DNA of 64,000 bases from an uncultured Chloroflexia bacterium (GCA_963842805.1 CAWJIA010000016.1:179191-243190); one strand, 5' to 3'; positions 10 through 39,837 are shown, counted from the stretch's first letter. Numbers and translations: made by a program. Notes: generated by a model not told the origin, from the letters alone.

Positions 10-1179
10 ATGTTTACGCCTTTTTTCTATAAGCTGCAGGAGAGGAAGGTGCCCGTTTCCATCACGGAATGGATGATCCTGATGGAGGCGCTCTCCAAGG
101 GCTGCATAAACAACCTGAATGAGTTTTACTACCTGGCCCGCGCCATCCTGGTTAAAAGCGAGACGCATTTCGACCAGTACGATATCGCTTTCCAGGACTA
201 TTTCAACGGCATTGCGCCTCCTCTCAATTTCACCGATGAGTTGCTTACCTGGCTAACCGATCCCAAAAACAGGCCGCAGCTTACGCCTGAAGAGATAGCC
301 GCTATCAAGAAAATGGATATCGAGGAGATCATGAAGGAATTCGAAAAGCGGCTCACGGAACAGAAAGAAAGGCACGATGGCGGTGATTACTGGATAGGCA
401 CTGGAGGCACTTCGCCTTTTGGCCATTCAGGGTATAACCCGCAGGGCATACTTGTAGGCGGACCGGGCGGCATGCGTAGTGCAGTGCGCATCGCGGAGGC
501 ACGCAACTTCCGCAACTACCGTAGCGATATGACCCTCGATGTCCGCCAGATAAAGGTAGCCCTTAAACAGCTCCGGCAGTTAAACAGGATCGGACCGGAG
601 GATGAACTCGACCTCGACAGGACCATCGATGCCACCTGCAAGAACGCCGGCGAACTGGAATTTAAATGGAAGCGGCCACGTAAGAACAGCGTCAAACTCC
701 TGCTGATTATGGATGCCGGTGGATCCATGGAGCCCTATGCCGACCTGTGCAGCCAGCTTTTCTCGGCTGCCAATTCCCTCAGCCACTTCAGATCCTTTAA
801 ATACTACTATTTCCACAATTGCCCCTATGATGTACTTTATTCTGACATTTACCAGCGCAAGGGCGAGTATATCGAGCACCTGCTCAAGGTGCTGGAGCCG
901 GACTACAAGGTCATCTTCGTTGGCGATGCCTGCATGGCTTACTCAGAGCTTGTTGACCGTTACGGAGACCTCTATTTCCATGGTTATCAGAAGATGTCAG
1001 GCCTGGATAGGCTCCGTCAGTTCAAGTCTCATTTTACTCACTGCACATGGCTCAACCCCGAGACATCCACCCTCCGCAACTATCCCACCGTTCAGATGGT
1101 TGCCAAACTTTTTCCAATGTTTGATCTCACCGTCGATGGGCTAAACATGGCCGTCAAGAAGCTGGTCACCAAAAGGTAA
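10..1179 (+). CDS. VWA (CoxE-like) domain protein, typical partner of MoxR AAA+ ATPases
   Basis: MIDAS-like LLIMDAGGSM; WIGTGGTSPFGHSG and YYYFHNCPYD motifs typical of this VWA family; a MoxR partner would lie upstream of the window. Confidence 0.8.
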   Translation: MFTPFFYKLQERKVPVSITEWMILMEALSKGCINNLNEFYYLARAILVKSETHFDQYDIAFQDYFNGIAPPLNFTDELLTWLTDPKNRPQLTPEEIAAIKKMDIEEIMKEFEKRLTEQKERHDGGDYWIGTGGTSPFGHSGYNPQGILVGGPGGMRSAVRIAEARNFRNYRSDMTLDVRQIKVALKQLRQLNRIGPEDELDLDRTIDATCKNAGELEFKWKRPRKNSVKLLLIMDAGGSMEPYADLCSQLFSAANSLSHFRSFKYYYFHNCPYDVLYSDIYQRKGEYIEHLLKVLEPDYKVIFVGDACMAYSELVDRYGDLYFHGYQKMSGLDRLRQFKSHFTHCTWLNPETSTLRNYPTVQMVAKLFPMFDLTVDGLNMAVKKLVTKR

Positions 1180-1200
1180 CCTCTTTTTTCGATAAATATA

Positions 1201-1229
1201 TAGACAACATATACGGCTACGGTTATAAT
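1201..1229 (+). promoter_or_regulatory. sigma70-type promoter, probably giving a leaderless hpt mRNA
   Basis: TAGACA-N17-TATAAT, with the ATG 7 nt after the -10 box and no Shine-Dalgarno. Confidence 0.65.
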
Positions 1230-1236
1230 CGTCTGC

Positions 1237-1755
1237 ATGTCCGGTACGCCCCGTATACTCATAACACGGCAGGATATCCAGGCGACCATCGAAAGGCTGG
1301 CGGGCGAAATACGCCGGGACTATATGCATAAAAACCCCCTGCTCATAGGCATACTTAAGGGCTCGTTTATCTTCATGGCCGATCTGGTGCGCCAGATAGC
1401 CATGCCGCTAGAAGTGAGCTTCATGCGCCTTTCAAGCTACGGCAGCCGCACGGAGTCGTCGGGTAGGATCAAAGTCCTAACCCGTCTCAGTGAGGCGGTG
1501 AAAGACAGGCACGTCATCGTCGTCGAAGATATCATCGATACAGGGCTCACCACCGCCTGCATCGTTGATTACCTTAATAAGAAAAAGCCTGCCTCGGTAC
1601 GTCTATGCAGCCTGACCGATAAGCCGTCCCGGCATAAGACACCAGTTAAAATCGATTACCTGGGATTTACGGTTCCCGATAAATTCATAGTCGGTTACGG
1701 CATCGACTGGGACGAGAAATACCGTTACCTACCCGACATCTGCTATATAGAATGA
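1237..1755 (+). CDS. hpt: hypoxanthine phosphoribosyltransferase
   Basis: LKGSFIFMADL, SSYG, PRPP-binding VIVVEDIIDTGLT, FIVGYGID. Confidence 0.95.
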   Translation: MSGTPRILITRQDIQATIERLAGEIRRDYMHKNPLLIGILKGSFIFMADLVRQIAMPLEVSFMRLSSYGSRTESSGRIKVLTRLSEAVKDRHVIVVEDIIDTGLTTACIVDYLNKKKPASVRLCSLTDKPSRHKTPVKIDYLGFTVPDKFIVGYGIDWDEKYRYLPDICYIE

Positions 1756-1813
1756 GGGTTTTCGTTATCAAATATTATTTTGCACTAATTGATACCGCTA
1801 TCGGAGGCATGAT

Positions 1814-3520
1814 ATGAGCTTGTCCGATCTGATAGCTGTGGCACGGGGTGATAGGCCCGCCGATCTGGTATTGAAGGATGCACGCATCATAAATACTTTC
1901 ACCGGCGAGATCGAAAAGGGCGATGTTGCCCTCTATCAGGACCGCATTGCCGGTATCGGTGAATACAGAAAAGCCAAAAAAGTTATCGGCCTCAAAGGCG
2001 CATATCTGGCTCCCGGGTTCATCAGCGGCCATATTCATATTGAGAGCTCTATGCTACACCCCTCGCAATATGCCCGTGCGGTCGTTCCCCACGGGACCAC
2101 TTCCATAGTCACGGACCTGCATGAGATAAGCAACGTGTCAGGAAGCGCCGGAATAAAATTCGTGCTGGACTGCGCACGTGAACTGCCCCTAGACTTCTTC
2201 TTCATGGCGCCATCCTGCGTGCCCGCCACACATATGGAGACTGCGGGAGCGGATATCGGTGCGCCCGGGATAGCCAGGCTGCTTAAATGGAAAAACAACG
2301 TTGGCCTGGGTGAGATGATGAACTACCCGGGCGTTATCAACGCCTTTGGCCCGGTTATTGACAAGATACTGGCTGCGCAAGGAACTTTAATAGCCGGCCA
2401 TGCCCCCGGCCTGGGTGGAAAACAGTTGAATGCTTATATGTCCGCCGGCATATACTCCGACCACGAGACTACGAATCTCAAAGAGGGCAGGGAAAAGCTG
2501 CGCCGGGGCATGTATCTTATGATCAGGGAAGGCTCCTCGGAGAAAAACCTGGAGGCCCTGCTACCTCTGGTTACCGACAAGGCATGGCACAGGTGCATGT
2601 TCGTGGTGGACGACCGCTCCTGCTCCGACCTCCTTAATGACGGGGATGTCGATGCTGTAGTACGCAAGGCCATAAAGCTGGGTCTTGACCCCGTCAGGGC
2701 CATCCAACTGGCTACCCTTAACTCAGCCGAATACCACCGTTTCTACGACCTGGGGGCTGTAGCCCCGGGCTACCGGGCCAATCTGGTGACACTAACGGAC
2801 CTCAAGAAATTAAAGGTGGATATGGTCTTCTATAACGGCGGGTTAGCCGCTCGCGGCGGCAAATACCTGGGTCCGCATTCGGGCAAAACCCCGCCAAAGC
2901 TGCTGAAGTCGGTCAACGTACGGCACTTTGACATCAAAGCGCTGCAGCTCAGAATCACTGAAGAGCGCTTCCCGGTCATAGAGATCATCCCCGGCCAGAT
3001 TGTAACCCGCAACACGCCGCTTAAAGTTCCCAGGGGCATTTTCAAGCCTGATACGCAAAAGGACATTCTGAAAGCCGTAGTGATCGAAAGGCATAAGGGG
3101 ACGGGCAATATCGGGCTGGGCATGGTCAAGGGATTCGGCCTCAAGAAGGGAGCGATAGCCTCCACCATCGCACATGACTCGCACAATATTGTCGTTGTCG
3201 GGACGAGCGACGCCGACATTTATGCAGCCGTACAGGCTATTGAGCAAATGCAGGGAGGCCTGGTGGCCTGCAAGGACGGGAAAACCATTGCCCAATTACC
3301 CTTGCCGATATGCGGGCTGCTCTCTGCGCACCCGGCGGAGGAGGTATCCCGGCAATTCGATGCTTTGGAAAAGACAGCCACAAGTCTGGGCAGCCTGCCT
3401 CCGGCCCCCTTCGCCATCCTGTCATTCATCGCTCTGCCCGTTATCCCCGAGTTGCGGCTCACCGATATGGGCATTGTAGATGTGACGCAGTTCAAATTAG
3501 TCAAACAAAAGGGGAAATAA
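1814..3520 (+). CDS. ade: adenine deaminase
   Basis: HIHIESSM, DLHEISNV, GLGEMMNYPG, SDHE, IREGS, AHDSHN motifs; 568 aa. Confidence 0.95.
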   Translation: MSLSDLIAVARGDRPADLVLKDARIINTFTGEIEKGDVALYQDRIAGIGEYRKAKKVIGLKGAYLAPGFISGHIHIESSMLHPSQYARAVVPHGTTSIVTDLHEISNVSGSAGIKFVLDCARELPLDFFFMAPSCVPATHMETAGADIGAPGIARLLKWKNNVGLGEMMNYPGVINAFGPVIDKILAAQGTLIAGHAPGLGGKQLNAYMSAGIYSDHETTNLKEGREKLRRGMYLMIREGSSEKNLEALLPLVTDKAWHRCMFVVDDRSCSDLLNDGDVDAVVRKAIKLGLDPVRAIQLATLNSAEYHRFYDLGAVAPGYRANLVTLTDLKKLKVDMVFYNGGLAARGGKYLGPHSGKTPPKLLKSVNVRHFDIKALQLRITEERFPVIEIIPGQIVTRNTPLKVPRGIFKPDTQKDILKAVVIERHKGTGNIGLGMVKGFGLKKGAIASTIAHDSHNIVVVGTSDADIYAAVQAIEQMQGGLVACKDGKTIAQLPLPICGLLSAHPAEEVSRQFDALEKTATSLGSLPPAPFAILSFIALPVIPELRLTDMGIVDVTQFKLVKQKGK

Positions 3521-3551
3521 AAAAGTCCCGCCTTCAAAAGGCGGGACTTTT
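3521..3551. terminator. bidirectional intrinsic terminator
   Basis: AAAAGTCCCGCCTT-CAA-AAGGCGGGACTTTT perfect hairpin with A/T tracts, between convergent genes. Confidence 0.85.
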
Positions 3552-3569
3552 GAAAATCCCGGGTAAATC

Positions 3570-3965
3570 TTAGCTGCTTTGCTTGGCCTTAAGGCGCGCG
3601 CTCTGCGCCAGCGCCCTTACCGCTTCCAGCAGGTCCTGGCGGCGGCAATCCTTGGTAAGATACCAGCTTGCACCGGCGGCCAGAGCATCTCCGGCATAAT
3701 CGCCGTAAACCGTCAAAAAGAGTATCTTCACATCCGGCATGATCTTCTTGATGCGGCGGATAGCTTCAGGCCCATCCATGCGCGGCATCTGGCCGTCCAT
3801 AAGTATTACATCGGGTTGAAGCTTTTCGGCCTTATCCAAGGCATCCAGCCCATCGACAGCCTGGCCTACGACCTGTATATCTTTGTGACCTTCGAATATG
3901 CTTATAAGCCCCTCCCGAACCACCTCGTTGTCATCGGTAATCATCACTCTGATCGGTTCTTCCAT
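3570..3965 (-). CDS. single-domain response regulator (NarL-like receiver only)
   Basis: ITDDNEVVREG, ILMDGQMPRMDG, FLT and YLTKD receiver motifs; ends without an HTH. Confidence 0.85.
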   Translation of the reverse strand: MEEPIRVMITDDNEVVREGLISIFEGHKDIQVVGQAVDGLDALDKAEKLQPDVILMDGQMPRMDGPEAIRRIKKIMPDVKILFLTVYGDYAGDALAAGASWYLTKDCRRQDLLEAVRALAQSARLKAKQSS

Positions 3966-4001
3966 TTTTCACCCTCTATAATTATTTATGCACTGATATT
4001 A

Positions 4002-4877
4002 TTATCTGTAACGGCCGTAAAGAGTATTGGCTGTCCAGTCCGTCCAATCACGCCGGACCCTGCCTGCCAGCAGGGGTGTTGAATGAAAACCTCCTTCTGA
4101 AAGAAGGATTCCTTTGGAACCTCTGGCCGTCTCGTAGAGGGCCACCGCAGTCGTGTAAGGAGCAATGCTGTCGCCATCGCAATGTACGAACAGTATGGCG
4201 CAGTCCCTGAGCTCCCGTATGACCGCTGAGAGCCTGGCCCTTCCCATAACATTGAAGAACCTGCTCCAGTTCACGCGCACTCTGTAGCCGGCCACTCTCA
4301 TCCAGAACTGCGACAGCAGCCCGGCGAAACCCTTCACCCATGGGAGAGAGCCATCCCGCGGGTATTCCATAACCGGCCTGTCTTCCTGCATAAGCTCTAC
4401 AGGCACTTCAAAGGAAAGTTTACTTATATCACCGTTGATCTCCGGCGGACATGAGATGGCGATCAAAGCGTGCGGCCTGACCTTGCGTGCAGCCAGTATG
4501 GCCGCCAGCGCACCCATGCTGTGCCCCACCAGTGCTATACGTTTACTATCAACGCCGGGCCATGTGGACAGGAAGTCCCGAGCGTCGACAACGTCCTTCA
4601 CAATGTCCTCATCGACTGTGCCTTCGCTTCCGCCGTGACCCCTGAAATCGAAAATGAGCACTGCTATACCTTTGCTGGCCAGGATACGGGCCGGAGCTTC
4701 CACCGTGCGATATCCTGTGCCGAAGCCGTGACACAGTACAGCGCCGGGAACCTTTCCGTCGATAAGGGGAAAGAGCAGCCTGCCGGTCAGCTTAATTTCT
4801 CCGCTTCCGAAGCTAACCTCGGAAACGCTCACTTCGTATTGATTGTTAGACCCTGTTAGTTCCCTTATATTGATCAC
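4002..4877 (-). CDS. alpha/beta-fold hydrolase
   Basis: CHGF oxyanion motif, FDFRGHGGS, nucleophile elbow GHSMG, GDSIAP, C-terminal GGFH. Confidence 0.85.
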   Translation of the reverse strand: MINIRELTGSNNQYEVSVSEVSFGSGEIKLTGRLLFPLIDGKVPGAVLCHGFGTGYRTVEAPARILASKGIAVLIFDFRGHGGSEGTVDEDIVKDVVDARDFLSTWPGVDSKRIALVGHSMGALAAILAARKVRPHALIAISCPPEINGDISKLSFEVPVELMQEDRPVMEYPRDGSLPWVKGFAGLLSQFWMRVAGYRVRVNWSRFFNVMGRARLSAVIRELRDCAILFVHCDGDSIAPYTTAVALYETARGSKGILLSEGGFHSTPLLAGRVRRDWTDWTANTLYGRYR

Positions 4878-9039: not shown

Positions 9040-9079
9040 ATTTAAATTCAATCAATTGGCTGCCATGCATACAGACCAC

Positions 9080-10393
9080 TCAAAAACTAAATCTGGATTT
9101 CAGTCTATCAAGCAATTCGGCGACCGGCACCCTTTCCTGCTGCATGCTGTCCCTCTCGCGAATAGTGACCTGGTTATCGTCCAGTGAGTCGAAATCAATG
9201 GTCACGCAGAAGGGCGTGCCGATCTCATCCTGCCTGCGGTAGCGCCTGCCGATGCTCTGCGCATCATCGTACTGCGTCATGAAATGCGGTCGCAGCAGGT
9301 CGTGCACTTCTTTAGACTTGGGAAGCAGTTTGGCGTTGCGGCTGAGCGGCAGCACCGCCACTTTGATGGGGGCGATCTCCGGCTTGATATGCAAAACGAC
9401 CCTGGTCTCTTTGTCCGCCGGCTCCTCGTCGTAGGCGTCGCACAGCACGGCCAGCAGGGAGCGGTCCACACCTGATGACGGTTCGATCACATAGGGAATA
9501 TATCGTTCGCTTTTCTCCTCATCGAAATAGTCCAGCGTCTTGCCGCTGAACTTGGAGTGCTGTGTGAGGTCGTAGTCGCCGCGGTTGGCTATGCCCTCGA
9601 TCTCGGACCAGCCGATGGGGAAATTATATTCCACGTCGAAGCAGCCCCTGGCATAGTGGGCCAGTTCCTCCTTACCATGCTCCCTGAGGCGCAGGTTATC
9701 CCTCTTGATTCCCAGGCTGACATAGTAATTAAGCCTTTCTTTGACCCAGTAATCGAACCACTGCTGGTCGGTGCCTGGCTTGACGAAATACTCGATCTCC
9801 ATCTGTTCGAACTCGCGGGTACGGAAAATGAAGTTGCCGGTGGTTATCTCGTTGCGGAATGATTTGCCTATCTGGGCGATGCCGAAAGGCAGCTTCTTAC
9901 GGGTGGTGGACTGCACATTCTCAAAATTGACGAACTGTGCCTGAGCCGTCTCCGGCCGCAGGTAAACGATGGCGGCGGCATCCTCCACCGGGCCCATGAA
10001 GGTCTTGAACATCAGGTTGAACATGCGGGGCTCCGTAAGCTGTCCGCCGCAGTTGGGGCAGGCGGAGGTGTCGATATCGGTTGAGCGGAACCTCTGACGG
10101 CAGTCTTTACATTCCACCAGCGGGTCTGAGAATCCGGCTAAGTGGCCGCTGGCCTCCCAGACTCTGGGATGCATCATGATGCTGGCATCGATGCCCACCA
10201 TATCGTCGCGTTCCTGCACGACCTTCTTCCACCAGAAATCCTTGATATTCCTTTTAAGTTCAACGCCCAGCGGGCCGTAGTCCCAGCAGCTGGCCAGGCC
10301 TCCGTATATTTCACTGCTCTGGAAGACAAAGCCGCGCCTTTTGCAGAGCGAGACGATCGTCTCCATATCAACTTTTTTGGTATCTTCCGGCAC
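9080..10393 (-). CDS. glyQS: glycine--tRNA ligase, alpha2 (homodimeric) type
   Basis: [55 protein letters not shown]. Confidence 0.97.
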
Positions 10394-10567: not shown

Positions 10568-12130
10568 ATGAGGGATAGCACGTTGCGGATTGCCGTGGCC
10601 CTTCTTGTCCTGGCCGTGTTGCTGATACTATCAATTCCCGCTGGATGTATAACACCTCCTGCTCCACTGTCAAATTTGCCCCCGCCGTCTCTACCCTCTA
10701 TCCTGCCGTCCAAAGGCATAGTCCACCTCAAAACAGCCATCATGGACGGTCCCGAGGGCAAGATCAATTATGATAATGTGACCTTTACCTGGGGCACCCT
10801 CCTGTCCTCGGTGGATCCCACTAAACTAACCTACTCATCATTTTTGCAGGGATACGACCAGAACTACACCCCCTTCCTGCCCGATACTTCTCGCACATTC
10901 AGCAACCTCCCCAACAAGGACTACATATTTTATGTAAAGGCGCAAGATGCAGACGGCAATATCGAGCCTGTGCCCGCCAACCGTGCTTTCACCGTGGCAG
11001 CGGCACCGCCCGGCCTGATTAACCCGCAGCCTGTGCCAGGCGGCGGGGGCGGATATCTCCTGATCGGCATCCCTATCGACCGCATAATGGTGGGGGCCGA
11101 CGGCCTCACGCTTTATGCGCTCAACTCCGCCTATGCCCGGCTATACCGCTCCGATAATGGCGGTGAAGGCTGGAACGATATTTCCGGCAGGGTAGGTGGC
11201 GGCGCCCCCTGGGTCGACCTGGCCATAGCGCCCGATGATCCGCGTTTCGTGGCCGTGGCCACCAACGGAGGCAGGGAAGTGTACGTGTCCGCTGATGCCG
11301 GTGTAACCTTCACTGCTACCGGTCTCGCTTCGGTTATAGGCGGCGGGCAGGTTGTGAGCAGCCTGGCTGTATCACCGGATTATGGCGCGCCCAGGCGTGA
11401 TATCGCAGTCGGCACCTGGAACGGCTCGGCCGGCGGCCGGGTTCTGATGAACGTCCTGTCGGGCTTCCCCAGCGGGTGGATGGATACCGGGGTTGGCGGC
11501 ATAGATGTATTTGCCCTCAAATACTCGCCTTCCTTCTCCTCCGACGGCACACTGCTGGCCGTGGCCTCAAGCCCGGTGCATACTTATCTTTATATGGGCA
11601 CACGTGACCTCGGCTCAACATCCATTGCCTGGAATACCTCGTTAAGGTACCCGGCCGAGATCGGCCAGGCCAGCACGGGTACACCGGGAACGCCTTTGAA
11701 CTACGCCGACATCGCCTTCCCCGCCGATTATAACGGTACAAATGCCTTCTCACGCAATGTATTCGTCTCGTGGAGCAAAACTCATCCGGGGCAGGATGTT
11801 TACCGCATGATAGATACCCAGGCCTACCGCATGAACATGCCCGAAGCCATAGCGTCCATTGCCTTCTACGGACGCATCAGCAGAGGTAAGATGCTGGCCG
11901 GGGCCGCCAAATGCTTAAGCGGAGGCGGCTGCTACCATGTGCAGACCTATTTCAGCAGCAACCCAAGCTCAAACTACCCAGGCTGGCAACCCAGCCAGAA
12001 ACCTCCCACAGGCTCAGCCAACGCCCGCGTGGCCTGGTCGCCCGATGGCACTCTCGCCTATGCCGCTACCAGCGGATCGGGGGCGGCCGTCTCCCACAGC
12101 CGCAATGAGGGCTATACCTGGAACCAGTAA
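10568..12130 (+). CDS. secreted lipoprotein: Pro-rich linker, Ig/FN3-like (Y_Y_Y-like) domain, Asp-box beta-propeller
   Basis: Lipobox IPAGC; YIFYVKAQDADGNIEP; Asp-boxes SDNGGEGW, SADAGVTF, SRNEGYTW; collinear similarity to the N-terminal part of 18629..22318. Confidence 0.75.
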   Translation: MRDSTLRIAVALLVLAVLLILSIPAGCITPPAPLSNLPPPSLPSILPSKGIVHLKTAIMDGPEGKINYDNVTFTWGTLLSSVDPTKLTYSSFLQGYDQNYTPFLPDTSRTFSNLPNKDYIFYVKAQDADGNIEPVPANRAFTVAAAPPGLINPQPVPGGGGGYLLIGIPIDRIMVGADGLTLYALNSAYARLYRSDNGGEGWNDISGRVGGGAPWVDLAIAPDDPRFVAVATNGGREVYVSADAGVTFTATGLASVIGGGQVVSSLAVSPDYGAPRRDIAVGTWNGSAGGRVLMNVLSGFPSGWMDTGVGGIDVFALKYSPSFSSDGTLLAVASSPVHTYLYMGTRDLGSTSIAWNTSLRYPAEIGQASTGTPGTPLNYADIAFPADYNGTNAFSRNVFVSWSKTHPGQDVYRMIDTQAYRMNMPEAIASIAFYGRISRGKMLAGAAKCLSGGGCYHVQTYFSSNPSSNYPGWQPSQKPPTGSANARVAWSPDGTLAYAATSGSGAAVSHSRNEGYTWNQ

Positions 12131-12181
12131 CATAGATTAGAAGCAGCAGAGGCAAGATCGATAGTCGCGGTTGGCACCGGG

Positions 12182-12658
12182 TCATGACTCTTGTTTTATT
12201 TTCGATATCCAGAGCAAATTGGGCGTCCTGTTCATGAAGAAAAGCTGCAATAAATATGCGGCATAAGCTCCCACAAAGCTGTCGGCCATCTGGCCCAGGG
12301 GCCAGCGGTCCTCATAACCGGACTGTACAAACAGAATTCCTCCCATAGCGGCCGATGCTGTGAGTATCAGTCCTAAAATGGCAAAAATACGCACGTATAT
12401 GCTCGACTTAGAAATAAAAGCAGATATCAGGACTATGATCGAACCGATGCCTATCACAAATCCCATTATGGCATGGTAAACCGAAAGGCCGGCCATGGCT
12501 TTAAGGAATTGGGCGCTTAAATCAGCCGGCCCACCCGGCAAAATTAAAAAGAATGTAATCCAGTTACCGCTCCAGGCCTGGACGCTCATGAGAACCAGAA
12601 CAGCCAGGGTCGAAATCCATAAACTTCTCAAGGAAACTTTTTGTAGTTTTTCACCCAT
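12182..12658 (-). CDS. hypothetical membrane protein (4 TM)
   Basis: Four hydrophobic segments; GGAGG SD upstream of a GTG start. Confidence 0.7.
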   Translation of the reverse strand: MGEKLQKVSLRSLWISTLAVLVLMSVQAWSGNWITFFLILPGGPADLSAQFLKAMAGLSVYHAIMGFVIGIGSIIVLISAFISKSSIYVRIFAILGLILTASAAMGGILFVQSGYEDRWPLGQMADSFVGAYAAYLLQLFFMNRTPNLLWISKIKQES

Positions 12659-12733
12659 CCGGCTATAACCTCCGTCCTTGATTATTATCTCGGCATGGCC
12701 CCTGGGGCCTCATATGCAAGTATAAAGGAATTG

Positions 12734-12762
12734 CCCCGGTGCCGCATATAACGGCACCGGGG
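12734..12762 (-). terminator. hairpin downstream of the lipoprotein gene, probable terminator
   Basis: CCCCGGTGCCG-CATATAA-CGGCACCGGGG; weak T tract. Confidence 0.5.
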
Positions 12763-12785
12763 TTGATCGAACATACCCTTAAAAT

Positions 12786-13409
12786 TTAATATCGGTACTG
12801 CTGGGGCGGTCCGGATGAGCCGGGCTGAGGGGCTGGCAGTGGAGCCGCAGGCGCCGACATAAAATCGACCGGAGTGACCACGAACCAAAGACTGTTTAAT
12901 CCCTGTCCTATGGTATCACCTGCCGCCTGGTCCTGGGCATAATAGTAAAGCGGCCAGCCCTTAAAGGTGGTCTGCATCATTCCGTCATCCCTGGTCATGA
13001 ACCCGAAGTCAGTTGCCTTTAGCGACGCCGATACCACGATGCTTGCCGTATAGAATACCGGCCATATCTTCACGATGGCCGCAGTGGCATTGCTTTTAAA
13101 GTAGTTGTCCCTAAGGAAATAATAGATCGTCATCCCTCTGGAATCGACCAGATAGTCTCCAATGCCCGCTTTGTTGGAGAGGTTAATGGTATAACCGGGG
13201 GCGGCTGGCGCTGCGGCCGGGGGCACTGGGGTCGCGGCTGGCGCTGCGGCCGGGGGCACTGGGGTCACGGCTGGCGCTGCGGCCGGCGCTTGCGGCTGGG
13301 AAGCAGGAGCCGAGACCGGCGCAGCCGCGCATGCCGTTGCACCAGCTATTACAGCCGAAAAAAGGATGATTAGAATCCCTCTGATCAAACCCGGGTTAGT
13401 CCACCTCAT
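12786..13409 (-). CDS. lipoprotein with 'secreted repeat of unknown function' (Lipoprotein_15/COG4315-like) and Ala/Pro linker
   Basis: Lipobox ATAC; LVDSRGMTIYYF...WP and QTTFKGWPLYYYAQD...GDTIGQG...WFVV; GGAGG SD before ATG 13409. Confidence 0.8.
   Translation of the reverse strand: MRWTNPGLIRGILIILFSAVIAGATACAAAPVSAPASQPQAPAAAPAVTPVPPAAAPAATPVPPAAAPAAPGYTINLSNKAGIGDYLVDSRGMTIYYFLRDNYFKSNATAAIVKIWPVFYTASIVVSASLKATDFGFMTRDDGMMQTTFKGWPLYYYAQDQAAGDTIGQGLNSLWFVVTPVDFMSAPAAPLPAPQPGSSGPPQQYRY
13201..13286. repeat. intragenic 33-bp tandem repeat, 2.6 copies
   Basis: GCGGCTGGCGCTGCGGCCGGGGGCACTGGGGTC x2 plus a partial copy; encodes TPVPPAAAPAA. Confidence 0.9.
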
Positions 13410-13600
13410 TTCAATACCTCCATAATTAAAGCATTCGCCCATCATATTATGCCCCTCAACGTTAACAACTCATAAAATTCCGGCGGAAAAAGTTGCGAAG
13501 TCATAACATTAATAAAAAATTAACACTTCCCTGTTATCATCCTTATTAACCACAGTAAATCGCCCGGACAAACAAATGACAAAAGGAAGTGTGAACAACC

Positions 13601-13990
13601 ATGTCGATTATTTTTGAAACGAACCGCTTTAAACATTACGGCCTGGTATCGCTTTTAAGACAGATGAATTGCAGCGTAGTACAGTTCAAGCTGCTGCGAT
13701 TCCTGCTGGCACATCCACAGGCCCACCTCTGCCCGGAAACTCTTGCCAGTGCCCTGGATATCACCAGGATTTTGCTGGCGCAGGAGATAGGACCGTTACT
13801 CGAGCTTGGAATCGTCTCGGAGCAGTCCCTTAATGGAATTACCACCTATTCCCTGACCATTAATCCGGTTATCCGGAAATATATAAGCGAGCTATCCAGC
13901 CTGGATGCCTGCGAAACGGCCAATATGAGGAAGGAATTATTCGGGGAAGTCCTGTACAATGCTCACTACCCGAATCAGTGCCGACTTTAA
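13601..13990 (+). CDS. hypothetical protein with probable winged HTH
   Basis: LLRFLLAHP...ETLASALDI...EIGPLLELGIV...TTYSL pattern fits a wHTH; divergent from the lipoprotein gene. Confidence 0.6.
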   Translation: MSIIFETNRFKHYGLVSLLRQMNCSVVQFKLLRFLLAHPQAHLCPETLASALDITRILLAQEIGPLLELGIVSEQSLNGITTYSLTINPVIRKYISELSSLDACETANMRKELFGEVLYNAHYPNQCRL

Positions 13991-14637
13991 TCCGGCTGCA
14001 GGCGCAGCACCATCCTGGCCAGGTCCCAGGCATGCTCGTAGAGGTGAAGGCCCTTGCTGAAGGCGTGGATCTCCCCGTCCTCCACGCCGATCTCGTTGGC
14101 CATATATTCCTTTAAAGTCTGCAGCCCGCCCAGGTTGGTGGGGAAGCCACCCCACAAGTCCCAGCTCCGGAAGTACAGGATGAAATGTAGTGCGCCATCC
14201 TGGATGCGCGTGTCCACCAGGCGCAAACACGGTGGGTCCTTCTGGTAGATGCTGTCCTTGTTCCCCACGCACATGCACATCTGGTTTGTACCATGCCCCA
14301 GCTTGTACCTGCTGATGACCTCCTCGATCTGCGGCGACAGGAACTCGCCGTAGGTGTACTCCTCGTTCTCCTCGCGGTGAGGGGTCATAAGATAGGTCAT
14401 ATACTCTTCGATCACCTCGTCGGTGGTGGGCAGCGGCACGCCGGTGGGCACGTCCGGGCTAAGCGGCCTGATGCCGGGCTTACTAATATTAACGGCCACC
14501 AACTCGATCTCCCTGCGGCGCATGCCTTCGAAACTGCCCTGCTCGATGACGTATTCCCTGCCTTCGAAAAGGGCCGTCTTGAGGCACTGGAACCAGGCGT
14601 CGCTGAGGCTCAGGGCATCTATCACGGTTAACTTCAT
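13987..14637 (-). CDS. thyA: thymidylate synthase, short archaeal-type
   Basis: YTYGE, catalytic DPPCL, YFRSWD, PTN and HLYE motifs; only 216 aa. Confidence 0.85.
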   Translation of the reverse strand: MKLTVIDALSLSDAWFQCLKTALFEGREYVIEQGSFEGMRRREIELVAVNISKPGIRPLSPDVPTGVPLPTTDEVIEEYMTYLMTPHREENEEYTYGEFLSPQIEEVISRYKLGHGTNQMCMCVGNKDSIYQKDPPCLRLVDTRIQDGALHFILYFRSWDLWGGFPTNLGGLQTLKEYMANEIGVEDGEIHAFSKGLHLYEHAWDLARMVLRLQPD

Positions 14638-14807
14638 TTTGTCCGTAGCATATTAAGCAACAGGGGCAATTGATGTCAAGGTGTAAAAAACCCCTGCACA
14701 CGCCGGGATTGCCCGCTCTTGGAAGCAGCATAGTGGTATAATTCGGCATTATCCCAAACAAGCAAGGGACTCAAACCGAATTCAATAATCACAGGGAGGC
14801 AAATCAT

Positions 14808-15113
14808 ATGCACTGGCAGGAAATACTGGGTTTAACGGCGGGATTGATCGGCAATATAAGCATCGTGCCCCAGGTATGGAAGCTATTCCGTTATAAAACA
14901 GCCTACGAGATAAGCCTGCCTTTCCTTTGTTTGTGGCTGGTCAGCACGCTCTGCTGGCTCTCTTACGGCATCTCCCTGGGGCTCCCCTCGGTGACTATAT
15001 GGAACAGCATTACTCTTCTTCTGGCCGCCCTGATAATGTATGCCAAGCTGAAATGGGGCATGCGGGCCAAACAGGCGAAGCAGGCGACCGGCGCCCTTCC
15101 TCCCGGGAATTGA
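14808..15113 (+). CDS. SemiSWEET / PQ-loop 3-TM transporter
   Basis: IVPQVWK PQ motif, EISL, WLSYGI, IWNSI; 101 aa; GGGAGG SD. Confidence 0.85.
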   Translation: MHWQEILGLTAGLIGNISIVPQVWKLFRYKTAYEISLPFLCLWLVSTLCWLSYGISLGLPSVTIWNSITLLLAALIMYAKLKWGMRAKQAKQATGALPPGN

Positions 15114-15139
15114 CATTTGTGCATGAGAGAAACCATAAT
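15110..15139 (+). promoter_or_regulatory. sigma70-type promoter for the HAD gene (very short leader)
   Basis: TTGACA-N18-CATAAT; ATG 11 nt downstream. Confidence 0.55.
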
Positions 15140-15150
15140 TTTAATCCAGC

Positions 15151-15843
15151 ATGATAAAAGCTGTTTGTTTCGATTTCTTCAATACGCTGGCCTACTTCGA
15201 TCCGCCCCGCGATGAGTTTTATGCTGAAACAGCGCGCGGGCTGGGCATAAATGTGACTGTAGAACAGATAGCCGAGGCCCTGCCCGATGCCGACACCTAC
15301 TGGCGGCAGGAGAACTTCAAGTCTCCCATTCGTGAGCGCCCCGAGAAGGAAAAATTCGAGGCCTATGAAGGCTACGGGATGCGCATTCTGAGAAATGTCG
15401 ACCCCCCGGCCACACCCGAAAAGGCCCTGCAGATGCTGGCCAAGGCTTTTGCCAGGGGCTTCAAATTTGTGGCCTTCGACGATTCCCTGCCCATATTGAA
15501 AGCCCTTAAGGAAAAGGGCCTTAAAATCGGCGTTATTTCCAATATCGGGCAGGAGATCGATTCTTACTGCCTGGAGCTGGGCTTTGCGCCCTACCTTGAT
15601 TTTAAGGTGACCTCCTTCGAGGTCGGCTACGACAAGCCCCACCCCGAAATATTCAAGCTAGCCCTACAGCGGGCAGGCGTCTCCGCCGATGAGGCGGTCT
15701 TTATAGGAGACCAGTATGAGCAGGATATCACGGGTGCCAGAGGCGTGGGCATAAAACCCATGCTCATAGACCGCAAAAGAAGCGCAAATTCCTGCGACTG
15801 CATCGTTATCCACAACCTCTGCCAGGTCGCCGATCATATCTAG
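15151..15843 (+). CDS. HAD-superfamily hydrolase, subfamily IA
   Basis: FDFFNTL, VISN, KPHPEIF, FIGDQYEQDITGA. Confidence 0.92.
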   Translation: MIKAVCFDFFNTLAYFDPPRDEFYAETARGLGINVTVEQIAEALPDADTYWRQENFKSPIRERPEKEKFEAYEGYGMRILRNVDPPATPEKALQMLAKAFARGFKFVAFDDSLPILKALKEKGLKIGVISNIGQEIDSYCLELGFAPYLDFKVTSFEVGYDKPHPEIFKLALQRAGVSADEAVFIGDQYEQDITGARGVGIKPMLIDRKRSANSCDCIVIHNLCQVADHI

Positions 15844-16110
15844 CTTCCGGCCATGCCAGGCGCTGGATTGCTAATACAGTATGCGGCACCATCACAAACA
15901 CAATAGAACTTAACTAACCGGATAATTGCCGGCTTTTCACTCGCCCTATAATGGGTCATATTTGCAACGAATCTAATACAGTACCATTTGCTACACAAAT
16001 ATGGGACTAATGGGTCATTGACATTGTACTTTCCGGGTCTTTTCACACAATAAATGCCTATGTATTATGTATTATGTTAATAAGTCAAAATAAAATAGTG
16101 TGGTGATCGA

Positions 16111-16707
16111 ATGAAAGCAGTAAAGAATTTGTTAAGAGATCAGAGCGGTATGACAGGACTGGAAACCGCCATTATTTTAATAGCCTTTGTTACCGTAGCC
16201 GCGGTTTTCGGCTACGCTGTACTGAGCGCCGGACTGTTTTCAGCCGAGCAGGGCAAGGCGACCATCTATGCAGGCCTCACGGAAGCGCAGAGCAATCTGC
16301 AGGTTTCCGGCGATGTCATCGCTAAAAGCGCCGATGAGGAAAATGTTAACAGCCTGATAGTAACCGTCAGGAACACGCCCGCCGGCAACCCCATCGATAT
16401 GACCCCGAATGACGGCAGTGGCACGAACAAGTGTGTTATCAGCCTTGCAACCAAGGGCTCTTACCTAAATAATGTGAAGTGGACAGCCGCATTCACGGGC
16501 AACGGCGATACCCCCAACATGCTGGAGCCGGGAGCGCAATGCCAGATTACCATTGACTTCACAGACCTCGGCAGCGGACAGACCCTCTCCGACAACCTGA
16601 CAGCCAACTCCTCTTTTACCCTGCAGATAAAACCGGGTGTAGGTTCGGTGATTAGCGTCCAGAGGACCCTACCTGCATCACTATCATACGTAATGAACCT
16701 TAACTAA
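16111..16707 (+). CDS. archaellin (archaeal-type flagellin, FlaB/ArlB family)
   Basis: Class III signal peptide RDQSG|MTGLETAIILIAFVTVAAVFGYAVLSAG matches the archaellin N-terminal consensus; C-terminal LEPG...FTLQIKP..G......RTLP also typical. Confidence 0.88.
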   Translation: MKAVKNLLRDQSGMTGLETAIILIAFVTVAAVFGYAVLSAGLFSAEQGKATIYAGLTEAQSNLQVSGDVIAKSADEENVNSLIVTVRNTPAGNPIDMTPNDGSGTNKCVISLATKGSYLNNVKWTAAFTGNGDTPNMLEPGAQCQITIDFTDLGSGQTLSDNLTANSSFTLQIKPGVGSVISVQRTLPASLSYVMNLN

Positions 16708-34617: not shown

Positions 34618-35343
34618 ATGTTTAATTGTATCCGGACCATGAAGGAAGATATCCGGGCCGCCATGGACCGGGACCCGGCAGCCAGGAGCGCATTCGAGGT
34701 GCTTGTCCTCTACCCGGGCCTGCACGCGCTGTGGTGGCACCGCGTGGCCCATTTCTTCTATTGCCATCGATGGTTCTTTATCGGCCGTCTGATCTCACAG
34801 GTCAACCGCTTCTTCACCCAGATCGAGATCCACCCCGGCGCTACCATCGGCAGGCGCTTCTTCATCGATCACGGAGCGGGTGTAGTGATCGGCGAGACTT
34901 CGCAGATTGGCGATGATGTCTTGATGTACCAGGGCGTGGTGCTGGGAGGCACTATGCTGCAGAAAAAGAAAAGGCATCCCACCATAGGCAATAACGTGGT
35001 CATCGGGTCGCGCGCCGTCATACTGGGCGCCATAACGGTGGGGGACGGCGCACGCATAGGCTCGGGCTCGGTGGTTATCAAATCCGTCCCGCCCGGGGCC
35101 ACAGTAGTGGGCGTGCCCGGAAGGATAGTCGAGGAGCAGCGGCCAGCCAAAATCGAGCTGGACCATGACCGTCTGCCCGATCCAGTGGCCGAGGCAATCA
35201 GGCTGGTGCTGGCCGAGCAGGACAAGCTGGAAGAGCGTGTGAAAATGCTGGAGGGCAGCATCGGCGTCACAGCGCCCGCTGACGAATTGAAAGAAATGCA
35301 AATGAAGGTCAAACAGGAATTTAACTACGACTACCAGATTTGA
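34618..35343 (+). CDS. cysE: serine O-acetyltransferase
   Basis: [45 protein letters not shown]. Confidence 0.95.
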
Positions 35344-35410
35344 TCCGTCACCATATTTACTGCCATAGGGATGTGCGAAAGGCACTGAATGATGAAAATT
35401 GAGTATTCCA

Positions 35411-35683
35411 CTATATATCGCTGAAGTTAAAAAGATTTTTCACCCCAAGATATAGTGCAAGTTCTGACTTGGTCTTGGTAACCTCCACCTCTTTGATCTT
35501 GGCCATGCAAGCATCACATTCCTTTATAGCCTCCTCTACCCGGCTCTCCTCTGCGTTTTCGCTCGACAGGAGCTGGTCACATAGGTCTTTGATCTTTTTA
35601 ATACGCTCAGCATCAGCGCTAGCGTTACGCTTGCCGACTTCCAGCATAAGTTCGGAATACTTAGCTCTTAGGGTTTCTTTCAT
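35411..35683 (-). pseudogene. probable N-terminal fragment of a phage head (scaffold/prohead-type) protein
   Basis: GGAGGT SD preceded by a terminator; charged helical sequence EVGKRNASADAERIKKI; changes abruptly to an unrelated tail after ...EVTKTK (about 35468); same strand as and downstream of the gpF fragment. Confidence 0.45.
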
Positions 35684-35708
35684 GGTTTACCTCCTGTTTT
35701 CGGGCAAT

Positions 35709-35733
35709 AAAAAAGCCGCCCTTTCGAGCGGCT
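35709..35733 (-). terminator. intrinsic terminator
   Basis: Minus strand AGCCGCTCGAAAGGGCGGCT-TTTTT. Confidence 0.75.
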
Positions 35734-35962
35734 AGGAGTATTTCTTGGGAAATATTTACTAGGCGGAGCTAAGTGGCTCTCGCAGAATTTGCAGATTTGT
35801 AGCAGTGGTTTTGATAGTCACCATGTGTTGCCATTCCCCAGACACAGAGTATAATATCGGACATGAATGCCAATAGGGCTGTAATTATAGTTAGACTGGC
35901 TATTTCTGCCTATTCATCAAGGTGAAGCCCACAATTATTTAATTTCAGGGTAACAGTTAGTT

Positions 35963-37048
35963 GTGAGATACAAGGGAATGATTGTGCCGGGAGTTTTCAT
36001 CCTGCTAGCGATAGCGGTGACGCTAACAGGCTGTGAAACGGCGAAAGAACATTTTGATAAAGGGCAAGAATACTGGTATCAACAGCAATATGACAAAGCA
36101 ATTTCGGAATACACTGCCGCCATAAAAATGGACGCAAAATATACCGAGGCATACGCCCAACGCGGAATTGCATATTCCAATATAGGTAACTACGACAAGG
36201 CAATTGATGATTTATATATGGCACTATATCTGAACCCAAATAATGCCACAGCATACCTTTACCTTGGAGATGCCTATTTAGACAAACAGGAATATGATAA
36301 AGCAATTGACGATTACAATATGGGGATATATCTAGACCCGACTGAACCTGCGAATTACTTTTCCAGAGGAATCACGTATAACCAAAAAGGCGAATATGAC
36401 TTAGCTATAGCTGATTTTACCAAAGCTATTTCGCTGCAAACAGACAAGCCTAGTTCTTACAGTACAGTACTTCTGAGTCTTTATTACAAATATCGCGGAT
36501 TGGCCTATAAAGCTAAAGGTGACATGGATAAAGCCGAATCTGATTCAAATAAGGCTCAAGAATTAGAAACTGAATCGAAAACAAACCCAACCCCCTCACC
36601 TGATGAGACAACTCTAACACCGGCGCCAGCACCTACTTCGTCACCTCAGTCTATTTCTCCAATAACACCTACACCCAAACCAAAACCTATTCCTACTCCT
36701 TATCCTGCACAACCAAATCCATGGCCTATCATCAACGGCATTAATTTTAACGATGAAACGATTACGCCAAACACAGCAAACCCAACACCTGAATACCGTA
36801 GATGTACCGGATATGATGTAACTTGTTTAGCTAGTGATACTGATAATGAGACCTTGATTTATACTTGGTCAACAAGTGGCGGCGAAATAAAGAGCCCAGA
36901 TAACAAATCAGGCCCCAAAATCCGTTGGGTTTCACCATGTGTTGGTGCTCATGAAAATGACGTCGATAGCATTATTGCAGTTACTGTAACTGATGGAAAA
37001 GGTGCAAGTACTAATTTCAGTATCATGGTAAATCTAATAGACCAGTAA
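35963..37048 (+). CDS. TPR-repeat lipoprotein with Pro/Thr linker and C-terminal PKD/Ig-like domain
   Basis: Lipobox LTGC; about 5 TPRs (AY..RG.AY...G.YD.AI.D); ASDTDNETLIYTW...VTVTDGKG. Confidence 0.85.
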   Translation: MRYKGMIVPGVFILLAIAVTLTGCETAKEHFDKGQEYWYQQQYDKAISEYTAAIKMDAKYTEAYAQRGIAYSNIGNYDKAIDDLYMALYLNPNNATAYLYLGDAYLDKQEYDKAIDDYNMGIYLDPTEPANYFSRGITYNQKGEYDLAIADFTKAISLQTDKPSSYSTVLLSLYYKYRGLAYKAKGDMDKAESDSNKAQELETESKTNPTPSPDETTLTPAPAPTSSPQSISPITPTPKPKPIPTPYPAQPNPWPIINGINFNDETITPNTANPTPEYRRCTGYDVTCLASDTDNETLIYTWSTSGGEIKSPDNKSGPKIRWVSPCVGAHENDVDSIIAVTVTDGKGASTNFSIMVNLIDQ

Positions 37049-37087
37049 CTTATAAAACTTCCACGATTAGCGAAACTTGAATTTAAA

Positions 37088-38158
37088 CTACTTCTTATAA
37101 GCGGTTTTCACAGCTTCGATAAAATCCTCAAACGCTTTCAAGGAGAAATGTTGTAAAGGCCATCTGGCGATGATGCCGCCTTTAAATTTTTTATTTTCAA
37201 ATACTATACCAGGCAGCCTTGCCCTTATTATGTCTTTTAACGTTTCTGCGTCTTCAATATTTACCCAAATACTTATGCCCTTCTTTTGCGGTTTTATTGG
37301 TAATCCAGCATATATGCTGTGCATTTTACCTGGGCGAATATGGAAATTGACGGTCTTTTCTGACTTGCGAGCTTTAAAATCAGTGATAATTTTTTCACCG
37401 CTATTTACCTTATTCACGAAATCAAGTATTTCCTTGACATTCTGCTGGGCAGTGAGATCACCAGCGTATGCTTCTATGACTACATCGTCAGCAGGTATCG
37501 GGGGTGGAGGGCTGTCCTTCTTGACCTCCGTACAATATATTTTAGGTATAGTAATTTCCATATCTTCGTGGTTATATTGCTCCAGTTGTACAGGGTATAT
37601 GGTGAATTTGCTATTCTGATTAAGAAAAACAATGACGTTTTTTAGCTGCTCATGAAGCTGATCCATTAACACCACGAACTTGATATTGCCTTCATGGAGG
37701 TTGATCTTAATTTTTCTTATGACGTCTGCGACATCCTCATCTCCGAAATCGAGGAACTCCTTTAACCTGCCTTTAAGATTAGTATTATTCTTAAAATGTT
37801 TTTTGATGCATTTATCCGCTTTGTCAATAAAAGCCTCGAAATCAAAAGAGTCACGCCATAATGATGACCCGTAATCTAATACTTGGGCAACTACTAAACG
37901 CTTATCCGGATTCTTGTATAACTTCGTTTCTATAACATAAATTTCCCCATCCTGATCGGTAGCAAGCAGATCAATCTGTCCGGTATTCGTGGGAAATTCA
38001 GGGCAGAGTATGAGCAGGCGTATATCCTCTTTGATATCATAAAGCGGAATAGAATCAGGATTCTCAAAGATATACTCCTGAAGTTTACCCTCCTGCTCAA
38101 ATGACGACTTGTTCAATTTAACCGCGTCCTTACCTCCTTTCGTAATAATAATTGACAT
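37088..38158 (-). CDS. PD-(D/E)XK endonuclease (NucS/DUF91-like N-terminal domain)
   Basis: E..LQEYI, EF, IDLLATD..G..YVIETK, VVAQVLDY; AGGAGGA SD favours ATG 38158 over GTG 38167. Confidence 0.75.
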   Translation of the reverse strand: MSIIITKGGKDAVKLNKSSFEQEGKLQEYIFENPDSIPLYDIKEDIRLLILCPEFPTNTGQIDLLATDQDGEIYVIETKLYKNPDKRLVVAQVLDYGSSLWRDSFDFEAFIDKADKCIKKHFKNNTNLKGRLKEFLDFGDEDVADVIRKIKINLHEGNIKFVVLMDQLHEQLKNVIVFLNQNSKFTIYPVQLEQYNHEDMEITIPKIYCTEVKKDSPPPPIPADDVVIEAYAGDLTAQQNVKEILDFVNKVNSGEKIITDFKARKSEKTVNFHIRPGKMHSIYAGLPIKPQKKGISIWVNIEDAETLKDIIRARLPGIVFENKKFKGGIIARWPLQHFSLKAFEDFIEAVKTAYKK

Positions 38159-38462
38159 CGTTAACACTCCTCCTACGGACTAAATTAATCCGGGATTTCT
38201 AACCCTCCCCAGTCTTAGCATAACAACCTATTGAGATTCTACTACCGCAACAGTCGATTTACCAGAGATTCATAATTTAGGAATACTCTTAACCGCATTA
38301 TGGCAATAGCGGCATGTATGTTAATCCATGAAAAATGCATACACTACTAGCAAATGGAGTTAATCTTCAGGGCTTCGAAACGTCCGAAGAATTAAGTCCT
38401 ATAACAATTGATTACGTTCTTAAAAAACAAGCTTGATTTAACTTAACCAGACATTCCTTAAA

Positions 38463-38729
38463 TTAAATTTCTTCGGTATATGGCGCCCAGCAAAGCGTCC
38501 CGTTGGGATGCTCTTCCTGGCTCTCGGCCTCGGCATCGTCAAATGAGTACACCTCACCATCCCTGGCCGTGCACTCTTCGTCATCGAATCCGGTCAGGTT
38601 ATCCATAGCTTGCAGGCCGGTAACGGCATCGGACTGCCGGTAACTCTCAATAGTCGATATGTTCTGGGCATACTTAGTCTCGGTTTGAGCTATAACTCTG
38701 GCCCGTTCGCTAATGCTAGACCAGGGGCC
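38463..38729 (-). pseudogene. C-terminal fragment of phage head morphogenesis protein (Mu gpF / SPP1 gp7-like)
   Basis: Manual translation (absent from the ORF track): GPWSSISERARVIAQTETKYAQNISTIESY...DEECTARDGEVYS...HPNGTLCWAPYTEEI*; no start codon, frame closed by a TAG inside the right inverted repeat. Confidence 0.75.
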
Positions 38730-38796
38730 ACATCCCTATGTCATTCAATTAGTTGCTACACCTCAGCAAACGGATTAAAATAATCTAACCCCCATT

Positions 38797-39837
38797 ATGA
38801 AGGCTATTATTCTCGTGGGCGGCGAAGGCACCAGGCTCCGCCCGTTGACTTATAACGTAGTTAAATCCATGGTGCCGGTTGTCAACAAACCGTTCATCGA
38901 GCACGTCATCCGCCGGCTGGCGGCACATGGCATAAATGAGATCGTGCTTGCCATGGGTTACAAGCCCGACTCCATTTTCGAGCATTTCCGCAAGAGCAGC
39001 GCGCTGGATATCAAGCTCACCTACAGCCTGGAGGAGAAGCCGCTGGGCACGGCGGGGGCTGTCAGGCATGCCGGCAGCCAGCTGAATGAGACATTTTTCG
39101 TTCTCAACGGCGACGTTTACACTGACATCGACTACACCGATATGCTGAATTTCCACAGGCGCAATAAGGCCAGGGCTACCATTGCCCTGACCAGGGTGGA
39201 AGATCCGACCAAATTCGGCGTCGTCGAGACAGACCAAAACGGCCGTGTGCAGCGCTTCATCGAAAAACCGTCCTGGGACAAGGTAACCAGCCACTGGATA
39301 AATGCAGGCATATATATACTCGAGCCGGGCGTTCTTAACTATATTCCCGAAGGTGAATTCTATATGTTCGAGCGCGGCGTTTTCCCCGACATGCTGGAAA
39401 AGAGGGAACCCGTCTACGCTTATACCAGCGATGCTTACTGGATCGATATGGGAACGCCCGAAAAATATCACCAGTTGAACTGCAATATCCTCGGAGGTGC
39501 CTGCGCTTCACTACTACATAATGGCGATAAGGTTATAATCGACAGCAGCAGCAAGGTGCACCCCACCGCCCGCATAACAGCGCCAGTCATAATTGACGGC
39601 AACTGTGTGATAGAAGAAAGGGTCGAGTTAACGGGTCCCGTAGTTCTGGGAAAAGGCTGCCTGATAAAAAAGGGCGCCGTCATAGAGAATTCCCTCCTGT
39701 GGGATAACGTCACCGTAGGCAAAAACGCATCTATTATTAGCAGTATTCTGGCAAGTGGTGTTAAGATTAAAGACAAAGTCCGGCTGGAAGGACAGACTCT
39801 TAACCAGGAACCCGGCAACGCGGCCGACAAGAATTAA
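38797..39837 (+). CDS. NDP-sugar synthase (mannose-1-phosphate guanylyltransferase family)
   Basis: LVGGEGTRLRPLT, PLGTAGA, NGD, FIEKP, INAGIY, WIDMGTP, left-handed beta-helix tail. Confidence 0.92.
   Translation: MKAIILVGGEGTRLRPLTYNVVKSMVPVVNKPFIEHVIRRLAAHGINEIVLAMGYKPDSIFEHFRKSSALDIKLTYSLEEKPLGTAGAVRHAGSQLNETFFVLNGDVYTDIDYTDMLNFHRRNKARATIALTRVEDPTKFGVVETDQNGRVQRFIEKPSWDKVTSHWINAGIYILEPGVLNYIPEGEFYMFERGVFPDMLEKREPVYAYTSDAYWIDMGTPEKYHQLNCNILGGACASLLHNGDKVIIDSSSKVHPTARITAPVIIDGNCVIEERVELTGPVVLGKGCLIKKGAVIENSLLWDNVTVGKNASIISSILASGVKIKDKVRLEGQTLNQEPGNAADKN

Follow-up and report, generated by a model that had tools for sequence, protein, structure and literature searches.

A 64,000 nt stretch of DNA from an uncultured Chloroflexia bacterium (assembly accession number GCA_963842805.1; CAWJIA010000016.1, coordinates 179191–243190), referred to below as the window, carries an insert of 3373 bp between cysE and the gene for an NDP-sugar synthase. 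The insert holds two intact genes, encoding a nuclease-like protein and a TPR lipoprotein-like protein, enclosed by fragments of phage head genes. The precise outer tips, a short target duplication and a fixed distance to a promoter make it very probable that a transposase made the insertion. For the structure as a whole, the explanation favoured here, with moderate confidence, is that it is the relic of a promoter-targeted transposon insertion whose interior was lost or was exchanged in place for phage DNA.

The insert is bounded by 15-bp inverted repeats (35361–35375 and 38729–38743), which are identical at 14 of 15 positions, 12 of them contiguous, and lie 17 bp past the cysE stop codon and 53 bp ahead of the next gene, respectively; these values agree with those given in an earlier note on this DNA. 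None of 3000 randomly chosen pairs of segments with equal spacing shared an inverted match of at least 12 identical bases. The G+C content of the insert is 41%, compared with 51% in the flanks, and no tRNA is present in the window.

The site was examined in the assembly that holds the window (G000) and in five genomes of the same genus (G001–G005). It is empty in four of them (G001, G002, G004 and G005), and the breakpoints coincide exactly with the repeat. G003 carries different cargo (8.3 kb, two-component) here, joined to the same left end, which sits at an identical base position. A second cysE locus, with 86–88% identity, 1.9 kb of cargo and ends like those of G003, was found on another contig of the window's own assembly (G000:C5; coordinates 11653–15503), and is probably derived from a co-binned related population. 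The insertion at the cysE site is real, and the view in the earlier note that simple prophage decay does not explain it was upheld, as the repeat lies at the exact breakpoints, the left end bounds other cargo, and the 9–10 bp at the right are not present in the nearest gpF gene. Three other readings, namely ordinary prophage decay at a variable site where a repeat arose by chance, a segment that inverts and a chimeric assembly, are extremely improbable. The second copy of the locus on C5 would allow for one of these, but the repeat is not expected by chance, the breakpoints are shared with independent insertions in G003, and in each of the three filled alleles the long end lies towards cysE. 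No recombinase gene was found within or beside the insert, and the invertible segment suggested earlier, for which an invertase would be expected there, is unsupported.

In the empty alleles of G001, G004 and G005, seven bases separate two conserved blocks; the G002 allele is too diverged for comparison at the level of bases. G004 has TATTTAC-CACCT-TTCAATTAG at this place, where the window has TATTTAC-TGCCA-[TAGGG...CCCTA]-TGTCA-TTCAATTAG. Read most simply, the alignment indicates an element starting TAGGGATGTG that is likely flanked by a 5-bp target duplication (TGCCA/TGTCA, one mismatch). The 15-bp repeat is the target duplication plus the tip of the element end and not a single unit, its length and apparent TG...CA form arising because the duplication is near-palindromic. 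Two statements in the earlier note needed correction. The element does not read TG...CA, as the TG and CA are duplicated target and other copies of the end have other flanks, which sets it apart from the TG...CA DDE transposons (Mu, Tn7, IS21 and IS3). A target-site duplication, reported as absent, can be recognised against the G004 empty allele as a 5-bp direct repeat with one mismatch. The empty alleles fit a 5-bp register, or one of 7 bp if the terminal T/A is left out of the element; TA, 4-bp, 8-bp and 9-bp registers were rejected as misfits by eye.

Junctions made by a tyrosine recombinase would require AGGGATGTG to be a 9-bp core site, the long end to contain arm sites and the seven flanking bases to be coupling sequences. 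Partly mismatched coupling sequences are found in Tn916 and CTnDOT, a 9-bp tip would be enough at one end, and the flanking 7-mers are partly alike, agreeing on the 3′ side in three of four pairs. However, the edges of the G004 empty allele are accounted for exactly by the 5-bp model and fit the spacer pattern less well, and the targets share no sequence other than the promoter described below. In addition, none of the five matches to PF00589 in G000 adjoins an end (one is XerD-like, three are integrases of islands, of which two lie next to tRNA-like sequence, and one is a fragment), and this origin is considered very improbable.

The element end is marked by the sequence string TAGSGATGTGCGAAA. 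The left end of the insert is ~100 bp long; ~90 bp match the generic end and ~100 bp match a copy at G003:C28. Copies of the end diverge by 12–25% from one another, most have T-A before GGG, and the shared end extends up to ~170 bp. A weight matrix trained on 22 copies, with overlapping training and test sets, identified eight clear copies and one weak match in the window's assembly and none in one shuffle. Of 202 genomes from the order, 11, which belong to a single family, matched an independent end pattern, and the reversed pattern gave no match. On a question raised in the earlier note, the left end bounds other cargo at the same and at other sites in the genome and its relatives, and no autonomous element bearing the repeats was found there. 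Retained lengths among 32 ends measured range from 9 to ~180 bp, the outer junctions being precise and the inner junctions ragged, and in two insertions a substantial end is retained at either side (G003:C2, 3.9 kb; G003:C33/C37, a site that is empty in G000). The end had no match in plasmids and only chance matches in phages, and four scans of viral contigs with end patterns returned 0, 0, 18 and 0 matches, the best scoring 24 bits compared with 27–49 for clear copies, none of them convincing. A metagenome scan gave 24 matches, five of which are real, and none of the five has a transposase of the element. The possibilities that the end is a transposase C-terminus (no conserved reading frame) or a structured RNA (weak fold, positive covariation term and no Rfam match) were rejected. 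The G003:C28 locus (L021) and a locus in a second genus (L022; G018:C306) are apparently identical, host genes included, probably due to mis-binning.

After ten of 30 long ends were left out as repeats of the same site, a promoter-like site, with a −35 box of sigma70 type, was found to start 15–16 bases outward (counted from the A) in eight of the 20 non-redundant long ends. At that distance inward there were none (0/20), and the background is 0.75% of 8000 intergenic positions (binomial P ~1e-12, with assumed promoter weights, a 9-bit threshold chosen after a first look, and kin that are not independent). In the window, the promoter TTGCTA-17-TAAAAT faces the short right end and not the long left end. 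A cassette in G005 (L031) has the same plan, with the long end distal, a remnant of 7–8 bp at the promoter and a 4/5 duplication. The short ends at G003:C13 and C18 were left out of the scoring; the nearest promoter-like site to that at G003:C13 is 28 bases out. At G003:C2 (coordinates 359–4282; L092), the ends face an rRNA promoter and the fusA promoter, and the intervening 350 bp of G001 are lost, apparently through an adjacent deletion that reached a second promoter target. A variable site at G000:C3 (~12100–16200; L049) holds different cargo in four genomes. Its flank includes a promoter-like site and also resembles the XerD arm of dif.

Both phage genes were found in a viral record (IMGVR_UViG_3300038428_000826; G576) representing a 43-kb prophage that is 61% complete, in which the operon order is terminase-portal-gpF-protease-capsid. 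In G576, a terminator and the protease gene directly follow the gpF stop codon and there is no cargo, whereas the window has 2.7 kb containing two genes at that point. The window retains gpF residues 192–274 of 278 (80% identity) and protease residues 1–71 of 500 (82%), and a 265-nt stretch that includes the intergenic piece is 83% identical to the prophage. The full-length homologue of the protease/scaffold fragment, with 500 amino acids (aa), matches phrog_15531 and PF06810. The gpF-like C-terminal fragment at the right repeat was confirmed by matches to PF04233 (E 0.002, below the curated cut-off) and phrog_2468 (E 3.6e-5) in addition to the prophage, and the intact nuclease-like open reading frame (ORF), convergent TPR lipoprotein gene, terminator and head-protein N-terminus described in the earlier note were all found again. 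The TPR lipoprotein-like gene has a 79% identical copy in another island of G005. The nuclease-like gene matches NF003270 far below the cut-off (E 7.7e-6), and its predicted product resembles the candidate defence protein PDC-S11.

The right tip, AGGGATGT, aligns with ATACCCGCT in the gpF gene of G576, and 16 other homologues lack the tip sequence there. Because the tip sequence is absent from these gpF homologues at that place, and the right 9–10 bp mismatch the nearest gpF gene, the right tip is more likely a cut element end than a site native to gpF. The two cargo genes resemble phage morons in having their own promoter-like sites and in lying between the gpF and protease genes, which are adjacent in the related prophage, but here no other part of the phage is left, and ends of non-phage type enclose the piece.

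In three more cassettes, at G000:C3, G004:C99 and G003:C13, the end is fused to fragments that derive from this phage family and surround accessory genes. The contents of the prophage's ParB-like/small terminase site are retained in three cassettes, that at G003:C13 spanning from a ParB-like C-terminus to a small terminase fragment. In the related prophage (L166:2459–5944), an IetAS defence system is located between the ParB-like and small terminase genes. At G003:C13 (L094:3230–8686), a five-gene cluster that includes a HerA-like ATPase gene lies amid phage fragments, and four of its genes have no PADLOC match; the cluster is a candidate for an unrecognised defence system. As four cassettes contain pieces of a single phage family, with accessory-gene sites at their centre, and in three of the four the phage genes read away from the end facing the promoter-like site, the element might be a transposable version of this temperate phage family, having these ends instead of an integrase site, that inserted whole and was reduced by large deletions to its ends and accessory genes. 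This is improbable, however, as the nearest prophage, G576, in which the end found no match, carries a gene for a large serine recombinase, the four scans of viral contigs gave no convincing copy, and many cassettes hold only host-type genes, some of them cut at the end. The features of the locus are listed in Table 1.

Table 1. Features of the insert in the window and of its flanks
Feature	Coordinates	Strand	Basis
cysE, left-flank host gene	34618..35343	+	TIGR01172 above cut-off; adjoins NDP-sugar synthase gene in G001, G002, G004, G005
Left copy of likely 5-bp target-site duplication, TGCCA	35361..35365	+	Register set by empty alleles
Long element end, TAGGGATGTGCGAAA...	35366..35466	+	BLAST, nhmmer and weight-matrix matches
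Phage head maturation protease/scaffold N-terminal fragment, first 71–75 codons, fused to element end	35471..35683	-	82% identity to L166:10337–11836
Phage intergenic piece with terminator-like hairpin and ribosome-binding site	35684..35754	-	Hairpin 35714–35733
TPR lipoprotein-like cargo gene, intact	35963..37048	+	PF00515 E 6.7e-31; promoter-like site 35828–35855
Predicted nuclease cargo gene, NucS-like, intact	37088..38167	-	PADLOC PDC-S11 E 7e-15; promoter-like site 38324–38297
gpF/gp7-like head morphogenesis gene, last third (~86 codons)	38463..38729	-	80% identity to L166:9428–10261, residues 192–274
Truncated element end, 10 bp (CACATCCCTA on + strand)	38729..38738	-	Exact inverse of left tip
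Right copy of likely target-site duplication, TGTCA	38739..38743	+	4/5 identical to left copy
Sigma70-like promoter TTGCTA-17-TAAAAT of downstream host gene, likely target	38753..38781	+	−35 box begins 14 bases past end; kept in empty alleles
NDP-sugar synthase gene, right-flank host gene	38797..39837	+	PF00483 E 1e-58

Formation of an in-place relic would involve three steps. A DDE-type transposase would recognise ends beginning TAGGGATGTG and be guided to ~15 bp upstream of a −35 box, generating a 5-bp duplication; this step is drawn by analogy, as none of the ends was linked to a transposase. Resection from a break within the element would then leave 100 bp of one side and 10 bp of the other, and end joining (Ku-LigD) or gap filling would connect these to a phage fragment. 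Finally, the intact accessory genes, one encoding a candidate anti-phage nuclease, would keep the relic in the population, and the cassette need not be mobile at present. The ragged inner junctions (9 to ~180 bp) point to repair, as a transposase cutting at the tip would not give them, and in combination with the precise outer junctions and the precedents for non-homologous end joining (NHEJ) as well as gap filling described below, they favour the in-place relic over its rivals. Microhomology at four inner junctions amounts to 1–3 bases (by eye) and is not above chance, the donor being known from an 80% relative only. Ku was found in all five genomes searched, and in G000:C2 (coordinates 300598–305144) a Ku gene has a 921-aa LigD-like ORF nearby (by eye).

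Alternatively, a non-autonomous cassette formed elsewhere could have been moved as a unit in trans, in the manner of TIME composites or one-ended capture, if one long end and a tip of 8–10 bp suffice. Two cassettes have a short remnant at the promoter side and the duplication intact, and the left end in the window is closer to the copy from another locus, G003:C28 (74/84 bases identical), than to the same-locus copies in G003 and C5 (66–67/84). At one locus, four genomes also have ABC-transporter cargo behind a long end, and elsewhere in G003 such cargo adjoins a 16-bp end, but there the end flanks the cargo's other side. Moreover, no cassette was seen twice with the same ends, the ends are 12–25% diverged and the transposase was not found. 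For mobilisation in trans, which the earlier note had offered as an explanation, neither a second copy nor an autonomous element was found, and the 10-bp end is more simply a truncated relic; such mobilisation is considered somewhat improbable.

Several observations weigh against the in-place relic. In-place replacement predicts an intact element at an orthologous site and none was seen, no transposase was linked to the end in the loci scanned, and the presence of Ku is no more than permissive for end joining. The duplications are imperfect, matching at 4/5 positions in the window and in the G005 L031 cassette, 4/5 with one extra base at G003:C33/C37 (by eye) and 2/5 at the G003 cysE site. A promoter at 15–17 bases is missing from 12 of the 20 long ends; three of these, including that in the window, have a promoter at the other end of the insertion, a further two have it 5 or 44 bases away, and for seven no site exceeds the threshold. 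Pieces of these phage genes also occur without a recognisable end at G003:C44 and at G000:C22, C13 and C12.

The transposase was sought in the loci of candidate families (the match plus 1.5 kb on each side, up to 30 per family) and in the whole G000 assembly. PF00872 was found in none of five genomes. NF033572 and PF06782 were found in 13 and 8 of 77 genomes, respectively, with none in G000, and the fetched loci were without the end. The tips presumably resemble those of the IS5 and IS1182 families; PF01609 was found in 8 of 12 end-bearing genomes and PF05598 in 46 of 202 genomes, and the 17 and 30 loci fetched, respectively, did not contain the end. No match to PF00665 or PF07508 (12 end-bearing genomes) or to PF12762 was linked to the end in the loci scanned. 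A Pfam scan of 48 ORFs from the interiors of variable sites that bear the end or neighbour one that does (42 out of a set of 72, and six others) found only an IS1595 gene. This transposase, 1.3 kb inside a G001 cassette, was rejected as it is located behind a different end of its own, as in other copies; unlike IS1595 elements, the end described here has no transposase directly behind it. No intact element was present among the ends fetched from 12 genomes. As most are draft assemblies, which are prone to drop multi-copy elements and may have dropped this one, the transposase was simply not found in those searched. IS1595-family transposases are present in 38 of 77 genomes of the family, and two IS1595-family elements of 2382 bp that carry passenger genes and are 99.9% identical were found at G000:C15 (~86300–88700) and G000:C16 (56937–59318).

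Elements of the TnGBS/ISLre2 (p-MULT 3) and ISKra4 (p-MULT 4) groups insert 15–17 bp upstream of sigma-A/70 −35 boxes and have inverted repeats of 18–39 bp with a terminal C, duplications of 8–9 bp and a Mutator transposase (PMC3942029). The ends described here are likewise inverted and have a −35 box 13–17 bp away (8/20 long ends and the short ends of two cassettes), and, as in ISKra4, either end may face the promoter. However, they start TAGGG, reach ~170 bp, are associated with a duplication of ~5 bp and are not linked to a Mutator transposase, and the element was not assigned to these groups because the duplication, end and transposase all differ. GGGATGTG had no match in Table S1 of PMC3942029. 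No report of this end family was found in the literature searched, which did not include ISfinder. Five near-identical ISLre2-family copies with 9-bp duplications and ends unrelated to this family were found in G002 (C17, C19 and C20; L140, L151, L155, L159 and L164). They are located ~16 bp upstream of promoter-like sites, so the known form of promoter targeting is active in this Chloroflexota genus.

In eukaryotes, Pack-MULE and Pack-TIR elements have transposon ends and a duplication around captured gene fragments, occur as single copies and show short or no microhomology, and gap filling explains single-copy Pack-TIRs in animals (PMC8277862). Here too, element ends and a target duplication enclose captured fragments of unrelated genes, but the host is bacterial, the captured DNA consists of phage accessory-gene sites, one end is reduced to 10 bp and the parent element was not found. 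TIMEs, which have full 38-bp Tn3 inverted repeats at both ends and were shown to move (PMC4133298), are similar in having no transposase inside, a 5–6-bp duplication and mosaic cargo; the ends in the window are unrelated to the 38-bp GGGG-initiated repeat of Tn3 type, and movement here is hypothetical. At an engineered break in Sinorhizobium, Ku and LigD join unrelated DNA with deletions on both sides (PMC6379672); the present case resembles this NHEJ capture in that these genomes have Ku, though here only the pattern of the product is seen.

It is possible, though this is advanced tentatively, that an undescribed transposase family, with ends unrelated to those of Mutator-like elements, has independently evolved docking at RNA-polymerase promoters, and that its insertions, as traps or vehicles, excise defence genes from prophages and fix them beside host promoters, forming a bacterial Pack-element system that may be mobile with one long end and a 10-bp tip. 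Without the enzyme, the element described here is a well-supported pattern and not yet a defined system. A third end family that follows the same promoter rule with another duplication length would offer a separate way of learning how promoters are read by a transposase. The cassettes also show how, in at least four instances, accessory genes of a phage have become permanent genes of the chromosome once the phage was lost, and they account for several integrase-free variable sites in the lineage. Short intergenic repeat families, with dozens of copies per genome across the genus, were also observed (L049:11230–11440; L050:7450–7650 and 9050–9230).

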